Source: a virus (lineage: Duplodnaviria > Caudoviricetes). Taken from it: a DNA stretch of 64,000 nt. Positions 30,054 through 32,918 of this stretch are shown here, one piece after another. Within the stretch, counting starts at the first letter, position 1, and the number at the start of each line of letters is the position of its first letter. The stretch lies in the IMG/VR virus record IMGVR_UViG_2791354774_000003, one strand, 5' to 3'. The translations under genes were made by a program, and so were the position numbers. The notes under the pieces are model-generated. The model ran no database searches, was not told the DNA's origin, and saw only the letters and a list, made by a program, of their open reading frames with translations.

Positions 30054-30107
30054 GACGAGGGCGGCACCTCTCGGCTGGGGCGCGCTGATACATCGGCCGC
30101 CCTCGCC
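30054..30107 (-). ncRNA. TIGR-like guide unit U6
   Basis: GGCGAGGGCGG-CCG-ATGTATCAG-CG-CGCC-CCA-GCCGAGAGG-TG-CCGCCCTCGTC. Confidence 0.8.
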
Positions 30108-30131
30108 TCACCGCCGAGGCGGTGTCTGCGA

Positions 30132-31112
30132 TTAGTGGGTGAGAGCGGCGCCTGCCATTTGGGTGCCGTCCATCAGATGGCCACCCTCACCCTTCCTCCA
30201 TTGGGACCAGAGGTCCCGGAGAAATCGCTTCTCGACGTAGCGCTGCGCCCGATTGTGCGCGTGCGCCTTGGTCTCGACCCGTTCGGCCTCGTAGACCTTC
30301 CGTGCGTCGTAAATTACCTTGAGCGGCCCGCCAGCCTTCACGATGCAGGCACCGAGGTTCCACATCACCGAGCGCCGAGCCGGGCTGTACCCGTGGTCAA
30401 GCGCCTCGACACCACCGACACGCCGCTGCCGGCCGCCATCAGGCATCACGGCCAGCCCCATGCGCTTCCATAGTTTGGCGGGATTGCCGTAGGAGCCGAG
30501 ATCCCCAGCCTCGCCGACGATGGCCGCCAGAGACAGCAAGCCGACGCCGCGTGTGGCCTCAACCCACGGCGCGACGGGTAGCCCCTTCGCCAAGGCCACT
30601 AGCCGCTTCTCAACAGCCCTGCGGTGGCGCTCGACACCATCTCGGGCTTCGGTCAGAGGAAACATTGCAGCCAGGGCAACCTCACCCATGGGATGAGAGC
30701 CTTTGCCGATGGCGGCACCGTAGATCTTGTCCGCTTCCTTTTTGTCGCCGCCCTCAGCGAGGCGACGGCACAGGGCCTTTGCCTGCAAGGTCAACGACTT
30801 CTCGGCGCGGTGCCACGCCTGCCGGCGCCGCCATTGTTCACGGACCTCTGCAATAAGGTCGGCGAGGTCGGCAGGGGGTAGTTGGATAACGCGTCTGCCA
30901 TGGCCGGCCTCGCCTTCGCCGGCCTCACGGTCGGCGATCTCGGTATCATGGGCGACGAGGCTGGCAGTGGTTGTATGGGTGCCACGAAGGCACTGGCCAG
31001 CCTCGTCATCGGCGTTACCGCCGATTGGGTAAAGGGGTGCGGTGGGCGACGCATCGTGATGGGGTGGCAGATGTTCAACGGTCGCCCGACCGCGCCGGGA
31101 CGTGCCCGGCAT
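30132..31112 (-). CDS. TasA-like Nop/IS110-Tnp-domain RNA-binding protein without a nuclease domain
   Basis: Coiled coil, then RGVGLLSLAAIVGEAGD...PAKLWKRMGL...YDARKVYE...HAHNRAQRYVEKRFLRDLW; no DEDD/RuvC or HNH; ATG at 31112 with GGAG RBS (start uncertain). Confidence 0.8.
   Translation of the reverse strand: MPGTSRRGRATVEHLPPHHDASPTAPLYPIGGNADDEAGQCLRGTHTTTASLVAHDTEIADREAGEGEAGHGRRVIQLPPADLADLIAEVREQWRRRQAWHRAEKSLTLQAKALCRRLAEGGDKKEADKIYGAAIGKGSHPMGEVALAAMFPLTEARDGVERHRRAVEKRLVALAKGLPVAPWVEATRGVGLLSLAAIVGEAGDLGSYGNPAKLWKRMGLAVMPDGGRQRRVGGVEALDHGYSPARRSVMWNLGACIVKAGGPLKVIYDARKVYEAERVETKAHAHNRAQRYVEKRFLRDLWSQWRKGEGGHLMDGTQMAGAALTH
30137..30192 (-). ncRNA. TIGR-like guide unit U5 (inside the 3' end of the Tas ORF)
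   Basis: GGGTGAGGGTGG-CCA-TCTGATGGA-CG-GCAC-CCA-AATGGCAGG-CG-CCGCTCTCACCC. Confidence 0.8.
30861..30914 (-). ncRNA. TIGR-like guide unit U4
   Basis: GGCGAGGCCGG-CCA-TGGCAGACG-CG-TTAT-CCA-ACTACCCCC-TG-CCGACCTCGCC. Confidence 0.8.
30954..31007 (-). ncRNA. TIGR-like guide unit U3
   Basis: GACGAGGCTGG-CCA-GTGCCTTCG-TG-GCAC-CCA-TACAACCAC-TG-CCAGCCTCGTC (perfect 11-bp stem). Confidence 0.85.
31039..31093 (-). ncRNA. TIGR-like guide unit U2 (variant second box CCC)
   Basis: GCGGTCGGGCGA-CCG-TTGAACATC-TG-CCAC-CCC-ATCACGATG-CG-TCGCCCACCGC. Confidence 0.7.
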
Positions 31113-31119
31113 CTCTGAA

Positions 31120-31644
31120 TTACTCCGCGAGGCCACGTGCCGCCTCCTGCAATTCGCGCAGGCGCCGATCGGTGAGCACATCGCCAGCCGTCTTGTCGCC
31201 CGGCACAGACTGAGCCACGAGGCGCAGCCAGCGCGCCTTGACCCCCATATCCGTTGCCTGCGCATCGTAGAACTGCGCGGCCTCTGCAATCTCCTCTCGG
31301 GTCGCCTCACCGAGCTTCTTGCCGCCGGGGAGCGGGAACATGAGGAGCGTGCCAGCCGCGAGTTGCACCACGCGGTGCGAACCGTTCGTGCGGTTGGCGA
31401 CCAGCTTCTCGGCCGGCGGGGTCCACACCTTCCGGCGCTCGACGCGGCACTGTGCGGTCACGGCGGCGTAGCAAGCGGTCGAGAGAAGTGGGTCGGTCAG
31501 ATCGTCTCGCAGACGACGGTTGTTGCGCACGGACTGCTCCAGGGCGCGGGTCGCCTCACGCACATCGCCGTTCGCGGCTTCCAAAGCGGCACGAGCCGCC
31601 TCGGCAACGAGATCTCTTTCCTTGGGCTTTGCTGAAGCGGCCAT
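31120..31644 (-). CDS. Helical hypothetical protein directly upstream of the Tas gene
   Basis: RBS GGAGA; 174 aa; lies between U1 and U2. Confidence 0.75.
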   Translation of the reverse strand: MAASAKPKERDLVAEAARAALEAANGDVREATRALEQSVRNNRRLRDDLTDPLLSTACYAAVTAQCRVERRKVWTPPAEKLVANRTNGSHRVVQLAAGTLLMFPLPGGKKLGEATREEIAEAAQFYDAQATDMGVKARWLRLVAQSVPGDKTAGDVLTDRRLRELQEAARGLAE

Positions 31645-31775
31645 GTCGGGTCTCCACGGGCGCCGGCCCGCCAGGGCCTGAAGCGCGTACAGGTGGTCGG
31701 AAGCGACCGCCGGCACCCGTGAAGTCGGGGAACTCGGGATCGCGCTTGATACCGCCCTGGCGGGGCGGGATAGGT

Positions 31776-31829
31776 GCAGACGACGACAGAACGGTATTGG
31801 GCGGCACTGCCGATACGGTCGTCGTCCGC
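31776..31829 (-). ncRNA. TIGR-like guide unit U1
   Basis: GCGGACGACGA-CCG-TATCGGCAG-TG-CCGC-CCA-ATACCGTTC-TG-TCGTCGTCTGC. Confidence 0.85.
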
Positions 31830-31853
31830 TTCCGTCTTCCGACGGATCTGCGA

Positions 31854-32255
31854 TTAGGATTGGCGCCAGTCGTAGCCGACAGCACTCAGAACGAGCGCCG
31901 CTCGGGTCGTTGGGCAGGCTGCGCGGCAAAAATAATCAACCGCGTCGCTGCCCTTGGGCACCCACTGCAAGTACGGCAACTCGCGGGTGTCTTGAGCGCA
32001 GGCCTCCGGAAACCCCGCCGGCATCGTCACCCCCTCTCGGGATAGAGAAGCAGCGCGCGCAACCGCTTTTCGATAGGAGTGCTGCGCCAGGATCTCGCGA
32101 TGCTTATGAACGATGAAACCGAGATAGGCATCGAACAGTCGGTCAGTGACGGGCTCGGCAACAGCCGTTGGCGAGCCGATGAGAGTGACGCCACCTCCGA
32201 TCAAAGGCAGTGTCGTGAGGCCGCGAAGGAAACCGCGCCGGGAGTGGTTGGACAT
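31854..32255 (-). CDS. Protein with twin-arginine-like signal
   Basis: MSNHSRRGFLRGLTTLPLIGGG...AVA; RBS GGAGGG. Confidence 0.7.
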   Translation of the reverse strand: MSNHSRRGFLRGLTTLPLIGGGVTLIGSPTAVAEPVTDRLFDAYLGFIVHKHREILAQHSYRKAVARAASLSREGVTMPAGFPEACAQDTRELPYLQWVPKGSDAVDYFCRAACPTTRAALVLSAVGYDWRQS

Positions 32256-32267
32256 TGCCCCCTCCCC

Positions 32268-32582
32268 TCAGTTCGCGGTCTTGGCGCGAGCGGTGCGCGC
32301 CGTCTGCCACGCAGCTTTGAGCGCCACCGACATGGCCTCGCCCCAGCTATCGCCGAAACGATCCTGATGCGCCTTCGCGGCGAGAACGGCTGCCTTCATG
32401 ATTGCGGCGCGGTCGAACTGACCGTTCACGACCAGCGGACGGCGCTGGAACTTGACAAAAACCTCAACCCGACCGCGAGCGCCGAGGAAGCCGGCGGGTA
32501 CCTGTTGGCGGTCGGCGCGGAGGCCGGTGAGAGCGGAGGACCAAGAGAGTTGGCGGCGGGAAGACATGGACGTTGGCCCCAT
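32268..32582 (-). CDS. Hypothetical protein, first gene of the Tas operon
   Basis: FDRAAIMKAA...SVALKAAWQTAR; start may be 32567. Confidence 0.65.
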   Translation of the reverse strand: MGPTSMSSRRQLSWSSALTGLRADRQQVPAGFLGARGRVEVFVKFQRRPLVVNGQFDRAAIMKAAVLAAKAHQDRFGDSWGEAMSVALKAAWQTARTARAKTAN

Positions 32583-32585
32583 TTC

Positions 32586-32652
32586 TGTGCTACCAGCACA
32601 ATATGAGGCGCCGTAAAGGTGCTGTCAACACAAAAATGGTGCCATTAGCACA
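32586..32652 (-). promoter_or_regulatory. Sigma70-type promoter of the Tas operon with three operators
   Basis: TTGACA (32628-32623), 17-bp spacer, CATATT (32605-32600); TGTGCTACCAGCACA, GTGCTGTCAACACA, GTGCCATTAGCACA. Confidence 0.75.
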
Positions 32653-32918
32653 TGACTGAGACCGATGGGCGAACGGTGGTTCTCACCGTTGAGCAAATCC
32701 GGATGGCTAAGGCCGCCCTCGGCTGGTCAAATCCTATGATGGCTGAGATGACCGGCCTCCATCGAAACACCCTCAACCGAGCCGAGAACGGAGAGGCGAA
32801 GAGATCAACCCTTGAGCTTTTACGACGGGTGTTCGAGCAAGCCGGTCTAGAATTCATTCCCGCTAATGGCGGCGGCCCTGGCGTGAGGCTTCGGGAGAAC
32901 GCCGAGAGCGCGAACTGA
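32652..32918 (+). CDS. XRE-family HTH regulator
   Basis: QIRMAKAALGWS...TLNRAENG...FEQAGLEFIPANGGGPGVRL. Confidence 0.88.
   Translation: MTETDGRTVVLTVEQIRMAKAALGWSNPMMAEMTGLHRNTLNRAENGEAKRSTLELLRRVFEQAGLEFIPANGGGPGVRLRENAESAN

Follow-up and report, generated by a model that had tools for sequence, protein, structure and literature searches.

The question raised by this 64,000-nucleotide stretch of viral DNA (Duplodnaviria; Caudoviricetes; IMG/VR record IMGVR_UViG_2791354774_000003; below, the window) is what kind of element is formed by an open reading frame (ORF) at 30132-31112 and by the hairpin-forming repeats that lie around and inside it, a remnant of an IS110-type transposase or an RNA-guided TIGR-Tas system, and, in the latter case, which DNA its guides would address. 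We are highly confident that the locus is a genuine TIGR-TasA system. The explanation that we prefer overall, and hold to be reasonably probable, is that it is a stem-loop TIGR-TasA carried on the cargo island of a prophage, where it silences rival sibling phages; the silencing of rival phages, taken separately as the role of the system, is slightly favoured. The gene at the centre of the locus is the following.

30132..31112, minus strand: tasA, encoding a 326-amino-acid nuclease-free Tas (Nop-domain) protein, recognised by sequence, fold and NCBIfam matches

The tasA gene probably starts at the ATG at 31112, in a frame that is open back to 31310. Its product has no Pfam domain, even at E<=10 on the longest frame, and therefore no DEDD/RuvC, HNH or Transposase_20 domain. 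By sequence, the only significant relative of solved structure is the TaTasR chain 9mty_A (E 1.2e-11 with the single protein, 2.4e-16 with a 42-sequence profile), PDB entry 9MTY being a TasR-tigRNA-DNA complex (PMC12045711), and the NCBIfam family NF052498, TIGR_Tas_endo, is matched at E 6e-26 over residues 152-306 only. The AlphaFold (AF2) model has a confident helical core at residues 81-310 (predicted local distance difference test, pLDDT, above 90), while residues 1-80 and 313-326 are disordered. When this model was compared with the PDB by Foldseek, the ten best rows were all TasR or TasH chains (9mty_B: E 5.6e-7, root mean square deviation 3.2 Å over 220 columns), the match to IS621 being far weaker (E 1.6e-2, template modelling (TM) score 0.40) and those to Nop5, Nop56 and Prp31 lying at E of about 0.1. 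The protein is a Tas of the Nop core alone, i.e., TasA, and no cut-down IS110 transposase.

The family is already catalogued at the protein level (Faure et al. 2025). A homolog from Bosea vaviloviae (locus L001), 78% identical to TasA, is listed in Table S1 of PMC12045711 in cluster node18136, a label with at least 23 occurrences in that table, and another tas homolog, P0002, is 80% identical. Among 8,000 candidates scored, 764 relatives were found at E<=0.001, and the core holds 55 invariant columns across 42 sequences, with an intact tasA frame in the window. Public annotation of the family is misleading: the names given to homologs in UniRef and JGI vary among hypothetical, 'transposase' and 'IS110 family transposase', and the public record of the window protein itself, P0011 (30132-30788), is an N-terminally truncated product of 218 amino acids that starts inside the coiled-coil helix and omits TasA residues 1-108, and thereby three guide units.

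Such names lead to the first alternative, namely that nothing at this locus is RNA-guided and that a truncated remnant of an IS110-type transposase stands beside unrelated palindromic repeats. Besides some of the UniRef and JGI homolog names, PHROG 4285, a 'transposase', points in this direction, as it matches TasA at 4e-18. Yet neither a DEDD nor a Transposase_20 match was obtained from Pfam, the fold match to IS621 falls far behind those to Tas chains, and the profile search of the PDB returned no IS110 chain at E<=1. With the identity given by TaTasR, NF052498 and the Foldseek rows, grouping of the protein with intact IS110 transposases as a simple truncation fails. The preliminary description of this DNA, made from the letters, had seen in the ORF neither DEDD/RuvC nor HNH domains, had proposed a nuclease-free Tas of Nop fold, had considered the label 'IS110 fragment' to be probably wrong, and had named structure prediction with Foldseek as a check; the ORF is present as described, and once the check was run, TasR and TasH ranked ahead of IS621 and Nop5, so that all of these statements agree with what sequence and fold return.

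The repeats offer a second body of observations. Six units of 56 nt, all on the minus strand between 30053 and 31830, share the core G-CCA-N9-YG-N3C-CCA-N9-YG, or CCR-N9-YG-N4-CCM-N9-YG in its degenerate form, and were scored with a covariance model built from them, by the pairing of the first ten outward positions and by folding (z-score).

30053..30108, minus strand: guide unit U1; covariance model 58.5 bits, stem 10/10, fold z -3.4
30137..30192, minus strand: guide unit U2, in tasA codons 308-326 (3' end); 52.0 bits, stem 10/10, z -2.5
30860..30915, minus strand: guide unit U4, in tasA codons 67-85; 57.7 bits, stem 9/10, z -2.8
30953..31008, minus strand: guide unit U5, in tasA codons 36-54; 57.0 bits, stem 10/10, z -6.7
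31038..31093, minus strand: guide unit U6, in tasA codons 7-25; 49.8 bits, ungapped stem 7/10, z -3.7, with a bulge in the stem
31775..31830, minus strand: guide unit U7, intergenic, upstream of orf174; 53.7 bits, stem 10/10, z -3.6

The 32-nt motif occurs 16 times in the window against 7.5 expected (standard deviation 2.7), a count reached in one of 100 shuffles, and seven of the 16 matches fall on the minus strand within 30065-31818. Complementary arms directly flank six of these seven, with 10, 10, 9, 10, 7 and 10 of the first ten outward positions paired; the seventh, at 30614-30645, pairs at 3 of 10, has no stem and was set aside as a chance hit. On both strands of the 5.94-Mb genome, 1,472 matches to the core were counted, among which only 11 have at least nine of ten stem pairs, and five of these 11 are units of the 1.75-kb locus. 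The covariance model gives its own six units 49.8-58.5 bits and the rest of the window at most 17.9 bits, with the sole exception of the units' own opposite strands (up to 25.5 bits). In all six units the minimum-energy fold is the closing stem (z -2.5 to -6.7), and a search of the locus against Rfam returned just two sub-threshold chance matches to microRNAs. The six-unit observation is far beyond chance, even with a motif that was fitted to these sites. U1 is located in the 3' untranslated stretch directly after the tasA stop codon, with ATGTATCAG as its spacer A and GCCGAGAGG as its spacer B.

Four of the units (U2, U4, U5 and U6) are inside the tasA ORF, a point absent from the preliminary description. 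U6, U5 and U4 encode TasA residues 7-85 and U2 encodes residues 308-326, and these segments are the predicted disordered parts of the protein. In 19 of 20 loci no stop codon interrupts the tas frame across the 5' units, whereas the two remaining frames are open there in 11 and 3 loci. In the alignment of homologs the N- and C-terminal tails vary in length, the only conserved residues in them being those that correspond to box nucleotides. The same arrangement has been described for stem-loop arrays, where units occur within tas at its 5' end, at its 3' end or internally, in disordered regions and with the frame unbroken (Xu et al. 10.64898/2026.09.09.750476).

Whether these hairpins are guides rather than ordinary palindromes can be judged from related loci, of which 32 were collected: six from species genomes, three from an order-wide search and 23 from IMG/VR. 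The order-wide sample gave a match in 3 of 400 other genomes, which indicates a patchy distribution. Of the 31 loci searched with the covariance model built from the window, 24 contain further units at E<=0.01 (21 of 28 without three duplicates); these units number 71, and all of them are on the tas strand. The 64 distinct units vary little or not at all in the G-CCA, in the YG, in the C-CCA within the loop and in the final YG (1.0-2.0 bits in the box columns), whereas the eighteen spacer columns hold 0.01-0.3 bits each. Pairing is seen in 95.9% of stem cells, while shuffles give 68.6% and slid partners 37-62%, and compensatory changes on both sides are seen in 10 of 11 stem pairs. In the 21 non-duplicate loci, the stretch separating orf174 from the tas core holds 27 units, that following the core holds 18 and that upstream of orf174 holds 7; another 6 precede the core where orf174 was not seen, and the conserved core of either gene contains none. 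Neighbouring units are mostly spaced by 22-37 nt. The flanks of 63 units are G-poor and C/T-rich in the 8 nt past the 3' stem arm and purine-rich in the 5 nt before the 5' arm, a composition that may reflect a stem weakly extended outwards or a signal for processing.

These loci also bear on the transposase remnant, since the repeats occur together with the gene, and on the same strand, in 24 of 31 loci and have box and spacer architecture and covarying stems, which is not what unrelated palindromes beside a transposase would give, and tasA is moreover a single copy in the 5.94-Mb genome; we regard that alternative as highly improbable and largely refuted. As to the guides, the claim that six same-strand units share one 32-nt core is upheld by the motif count, the arms, the covariance model and the folding, and all 12 nonamers are distinct, as had been stated. 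The covariance model across homologous loci that had been suggested for them found its 71 units with covarying stems, and the nonamers, which could have turned out as conserved as the boxes, are close to free of constraint. The stems had been given as 11-12 bp throughout; all six units do have a closing stem, but their lengths range over 7-13 bp and that of U6 is bulged.

A guide unit at the 3' end of tas in a Microvirga-type locus (L003:3935-3991, identical to L019) deserves separate mention. Read in the correct geometry, its two spacers correspond to the codons of WKRMGL, a motif that is invariant in tas, and against the tas genes of other phages this guide has one mismatch in L016, two in L001, L023, L024, L025 and L032, and three in the window, while the tas of its own locus shows five mismatches to it, including a Met-to-Leu change. 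It is possible that this unit is an 'anti-tas' guide directed against the systems of rival phages; it is a single case, and the matches are homologous to one another and hence not independent.

To which class of arrays does the locus belong? The preliminary description had cited the 36-nt dual-repeat class of TIGR arrays, and it is the closing stems that place the locus in the stem-loop class instead. At the same time, the unit core matches the synthetic TaTasR tigRNA1 (Table S3, PMC12045711), with CCA before and UG after each 9-nt spacer, and a 9-nt loop ending in CCCA is common to the units and to TaTasR tigRNA1. A possible intermediate between the two classes has been described in stem-loop arrays whose loop is conserved in both length and sequence (PMC12045711, section 9), and the locus, by its sequence features, fits such a dual-repeat/stem-loop intermediate. 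Like other stem-loop clades, the modelled TasA appears to have no long C-terminal loop able to carry a Y/H processing dyad.

Four points have to be set against the assignment to TIGR-TasA and its stem-loop class. The score of 91.7 bits with NF052498 lies below the equivalog cut-off of 100, and on this sequence criterion TasA is a relative of the TIGR_Tas_endo endonuclease equivalog, not a member of it. Seven of the 28 non-duplicate loci gave no unit at E<=0.01, and the covariation counts come from an alignment that was fitted to the model. Finally, CUU at the stem bases, described as the processing boundary in stem-loop tigRNAs but not stated there to define membership (10.64898/2026.09.09.750476), is not conserved here: among 63 units, CTT is present in the 5' flank of 1 and in the 3' flank of 15, and no flank column is conserved.

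Furthermore, the array includes a second gene.

31120..31644, minus strand: orf174, encoding a 174-amino-acid, predicted all-helical protein, within the array and directly upstream of tasA; recognised by tblastn conservation beside tas

The end of orf174 and the start of tasA are 7 nt apart, and guide units flank orf174 on both sides. In 26 of the 32 loci it is found by tblastn directly upstream of tas, down to 34-41% tas identity, and several of the six loci without a match are contig ends. None of its 124 homologs is named, and many of them are on contigs equal in length to those of tas relatives. The model is all-helical (pLDDT 83.6, predicted TM score 0.40), and no Pfam, NCBIfam or PHROG family was matched; the best results were E 0.86 in the PDB profile search, a score of 0.88 to unnamed viral clusters in the Atlas search, E 2.0 in Foldseek and, in VIA-align, Z 5.3 over a helical hairpin, which is below the noise level for helical proteins. 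Profile comparison found no similarity between orf174 and TasA, and PADLOC gave no match for seven proteins of the island. A ParB-like partner gene has been reported in some TasA operons, as TasA-TasParB (PMC12045711). When 35 orf174 homologs were searched against Pfam, no ParB appeared at E<=1 among the 25 families listed, and the PDB profile and fold searches with orf174 gave no ParB chain, although absence from the fold lists does not exclude one; on these searches, orf174 does not look like this ParB-like partner.

Such conservation raises the alternative that the system is a genuine TIGR-TasA but acts through orf174, either as an effector brought to the target or as a processor of the hairpins, with an outcome beyond passive repression. 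The position of the gene directly upstream of tas in most loci, even at low tas identity, and between units on both sides is in favour of this, as is the modelled TasA tail, which after the helix at 282-310 would comprise only about 16 disordered residues. However, the all-helical protein has no nuclease, ParB or other family or fold match and only one invariant acidic residue, and published TasA proteins are described as working without a partner in E. coli (10.64898/2026.09.09.750476; PMC12045711). We consider this alternative unlikely, and to assign orf174 the part of guide processor or effector is speculation.

With the nature of the locus settled to this degree, its possible role depends on what the guides match. 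The published tigRNA1, taken together with its DNA substrate (PMC12045711), gives the target geometry 5'-A+rc(B)-3' (rc, reverse complement) and rules out the alternative geometry rc(A)+B. A scan of IMG/VR with the six guides, for exact matches with a gap of 0-2 bp allowed, returned 13 stretches (five for U1, two for U7, three for U2, two for U4, none for U5 and one for U6). One of them, a match of U1 that is ungapped and exact, is located in the complete 58-kb provirus of G789, a collinear mosaic relative of the window prophage with 72-98% nucleotide identity and the only IMG/VR contig to encode a close relative of the sheath protein. The same provirus is present in G841, the genome of another species of the same genus, and neither G789 nor G841 has a tas. 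The 18-bp site comprises the last codons and the stop codon of a phrog_1973 gene, the ribosome site GAGAGG, and the A and T of the start codon of the tail-sheath gene.

A metagenome contig of 47,711 bases (L056), 83% identical to the window over 2.5 kb, carries the exact U1 18-mer at the same sheath junction, with diverged sequence just upstream; it is one of seven stretches found in a metagenome scan of the 18-mer, the other six not being homologous to the window. L056 equals in length the contig that encodes the tas homolog P0002; if the two are one contig, a tas-positive phage would itself be a target of U1. The sheath junction had no match in INPHARED phages. When 146 genomes of the genus were scanned, U1 occurred at up to one mismatch solely at the provirus site of G789 and G841, and the reversed control gave none. 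As a further control, spacers A and B of different units were mis-paired into 4,032 pseudo-guides, of which none had an exact match in G789 and L056 and two had a match with one mismatch; if six guides with three gap settings are compared with about 100 kb of relatives, we estimate the probability of an exact match by chance to be of the order of 1e-4. The resident prophage has its own version of the site:

40317..40333, minus strand: own copy of the U1 target site (phrog_1973 stop, ribosome site, tail-sheath start), with two substitutions and a 1-nt deletion

To judge from the sequence, this mutated copy should spare the resident prophage, 'escape' being only a reading of it, and U1 has no match of up to two mismatches anywhere in its own genome. 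A gapped (1-2 bp) match with one mismatch in the own chromosome, to a foreign unit, was judged to be chance.

Near-identical copies of the locus were also observed in two run contigs from different studies, X15 and X1, at depths of 2.1 and 5.8. Both contigs carry two changes in U1, namely G>A at 30073 (third base of spacer B) and C>T at 30081 (loop), so that in a close variant of the prophage the U1 guide differs by one mismatch from the site of the sibling phage. A look-up of RNA runs covering 29900-32700 returned none, and the contigs assembled there from four runs were short and of DNA type, with no ends or joints.

The surroundings of the locus are those of a myovirus-like prophage, GC-rich and of alphaproteobacterial host, in a complete 5.94-Mb genome. 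Its structural genes (terminase, protease, major head, sheath, tape measure, baseplate and fibres) are all on the minus strand, and the tas operon is part of an island that also holds a HigB/HigA pair, a DUF4926 gene, a Cro/CI-type helix-turn-helix (HTH) gene and small membrane or secreted proteins.

29,047-35,846: cargo island with the tas operon, between the tape-measure gene and the distal tail genes
29100-30051, plus strand: HigB-like toxin (Pfam E 1.1e-15), HigA-type HTH antitoxin and a weakly matched DUF4926 gene
31854-32255, minus strand: orf133, 133 amino acids, with a twin-arginine-like signal at its start and a weak TIGR02811 match (E 0.07)
32268-32567, minus strand: orf99, 99 amino acids, phrog_36439 (8.7e-30, unknown function)
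32600..32628, minus strand: sigma-70-like promoter consensus TTGACA-17-CATATT, one site against 0.3 expected
32652-32918, plus strand: Cro/CI-type HTH gene, facing away from the promoter-like site
8056-9447, minus strand: transposase gene of 463 amino acids (phrog_5749, 7.8e-72), about 10 kb past the tail-fibre side of the prophage region

The HigB, HigA and DUF4926 genes converge on the end of the tas operon and are found in 0 to 1 of the 32 related tas loci. Conservation with tas is likewise absent for orf133 and orf99, the two same-strand genes ahead of U7, which occur in 2 and 0 of the 32 loci. At the island position, the collinear sibling provirus has just about 1 kb and no tas. From its sequence, the promoter-like site at 32628-32600 could drive orf99, orf133, U7, orf174 and tasA.

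Against the silencing of rival phages as the role of this system stand several observations, most of which concern the target. Twelve of the 13 exact IMG/VR matches are in contigs unlike the window genome, mostly of low GC, and were taken as background. G789 and L056 owe the site to common ancestry and represent a single event, so that there is a candidate target for only one of six guides: U2, U4 and U7 have no match at up to one mismatch in the 146 genus genomes, and none of the other guides matches the sibling provirus at up to three mismatches. The changes in the own site make up three of the six differences in a 100-nt stretch and are not significantly concentrated there (estimated p of about 0.08). 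The promoter is a consensus match alone, and transcription, processing and formation of the ribonucleoprotein (RNP) are steps that we infer, as are DNA binding, repression and any role of orf174. The earlier suggestion of a conflict between phages has thus gained one concrete candidate target, the sheath junction matched by U1, and has five guides to which no target can be attached.

It is also possible that a genuine TIGR-TasA regulates the life cycle of the resident prophage, or genes of its host. The operon faces away from the Cro/CI-type HTH gene at the promoter-like site, in an arrangement that resembles a control region, and silencing of the host and regulation of the life cycle are listed as options in the Discussion of 10.64898/2026.09.09.750476. 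On the other hand, at up to one mismatch no guide has a site in its own 5.94-Mb genome, in the right geometry or in the other arrangement, matches at two to three mismatches being equal to those of controls; the one junction for which a guide is at hand is, in the resident prophage, the mutated one. For these reasons we consider regulation of the resident prophage or its host rather unlikely.

Finally, the locus could be an inert or decaying passenger, the U1 match being a fossil of the origin of its spacer, e.g., a copied ancestral sheath junction. The origin of TIGR spacers is described in the literature as unknown, the match is confined to one guide, and the third base of U1 spacer B differs in the contigs of the two other runs. 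Decay, on the other hand, would hardly leave the core of the protein with its invariant columns and an intact frame, nor the boxes invariant and the stems kept by compensatory change, which point to purifying selection on protein and guides alike, and we regard the passenger as improbable.

The explanation that we prefer, a stem-loop TIGR-TasA that silences rival sibling phages, can be put as a sequence of steps. A minus-strand transcript would run through U7, orf174, tasA, with U6, U5, U4 and U2 within the frame, and U1, and would yield the TasA protein and six hairpin guides, including hairpins released from the tasA message itself. Each guide would present two spacers of 9 nt, each preceded by a box C-like CCA and followed by a box D-like YG, and a TasA dimer would hold one guide, by analogy with the solved TasR, TasH and TasA complexes. 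Spacer A would pair with one strand and spacer B with the other strand of the adjacent 9 bp, giving an 18-bp site, where the complex, having no nuclease domain, would bind and block without cutting. Such RNPs of TasA and guide have been reported to bind 18-bp DNA sites as dimers and to repress transcription reversibly, in reporter assays and electrophoretic mobility shift assays (10.64898/2026.09.09.750476). Loaded with U1, TasA would settle on the junction of stop codon, ribosome site and start codon that precedes the tail-sheath gene in sibling phages, whether incoming or co-resident, and the transcription of their late tail operon would be blocked, leading to the exclusion of close competitors, while the resident prophage would be spared through its mutated site.

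If this is true, it would amount to an RNA-guided superinfection exclusion without cutting, in which the late tail operon of the rival is shut off. In PMC12045711 and 10.64898/2026.09.09.750476, the natural targets of TIGR spacers, and hence the role of the systems, are described as undetermined, the reasons given being that most loci are on metagenomic fragments and that 9-nt spacers yield many false matches. We found no report of a natural TIGR target in a literature search of which 15 of 910 matches were listed, the Science paper being the only one on TIGR among those listed, and the Guan preprint (10.64898/2026.08.11.744272) mentions neither a natural or native target nor a prophage. Here, a complete prophage in a complete genome is matched with a tas-less sibling provirus in a species of the same genus, which bears an exact 18-bp match at a functionally meaningful site and makes the silencing of rivals testable in the native host. 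We put forward only tentatively, as an idea somewhat more doubtful than not, that this is among the first natural targets of TIGR guides and a case of non-cutting RNA-guided superinfection exclusion, with orf174 as a dedicated accessory, processing or effector factor of the clade.

The TIGR-Tas kind as such is known (Science 2025; preprints and papers of 2026), the protein cluster of TasA is catalogued, and the array may already be annotated in TIGRSafari or in the supplements of preprints; what the locus adds is a partner gene flagged as conserved, together with guides whose architecture falls between those of the dual-repeat and the stem-loop class. More remote relatives frame the comparison. 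With Nop5, Nop56 and Nop58, the scaffold proteins of archaeal and eukaryotic box C/D small nucleolar RNPs, the present system has in common the Nop fold, the coiled-coil dimer and a guide with two antisense elements in box C/D-like motifs, although the fold match is weak and a Tas targets DNA, not ribosomal RNA. With IS110/IS621 (8WT6) it has in common a distantly related RNA-binding C-terminal domain and a guide RNA with two binding loops, whereas here there is no DEDD/RuvC, no Pfam match to Transposase_20 or DEDD_Tnp_IS110, and a single copy, and no transposon ends were seen, although no search was aimed at them.

The examples of stem-loop TIGR-TasA described so far, PlTasA from a Peromyscus leucopus gut contig, BlTasA from Bifidobacterium longum and MbTasA (PMC12045711; 10.64898/2026.09.09.750476; 10.64898/2026.08.11.744272), are like the present system in their solo Nop-domain Tas without a nuclease, in hairpins with two spacers of about 9 nt in box C/D-like motifs and variable palindromic stems, in units placed upstream, downstream and inside tas in disordered segments, in the absence of a C-terminal Y/H processing loop, and in viral carriage. 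In contrast to stem-loop systems, box C is CCA here and not the CUU described for PateTasR, and the stem bases have no conserved CUU. The 9-nt loop is conserved in sequence, as is the loop repeat of dual-repeat arrays, a partner of 174 amino acids is encoded within the array, and the carrier is a GC-rich alphaproteobacterial prophage, all of which set it apart from those TasA examples. TaTasR of a Thermoproteota archaeon (9MTY) remains the closest solved relative by sequence and fold, with the same coiled-coil plus C-terminal domain and a guide of the same CCA-N9-UG-N4-CCA-N9-UG core and 9-nt loop ending in CCCA. Unlike the present protein, TaTasR has an active N-terminal RuvC and cuts DNA, and its guides come from a dual-repeat array and are processed to 36 nt, whereas here variable stems of 7-13 bp replace the edge repeats and the units lie dispersed in and about two genes.

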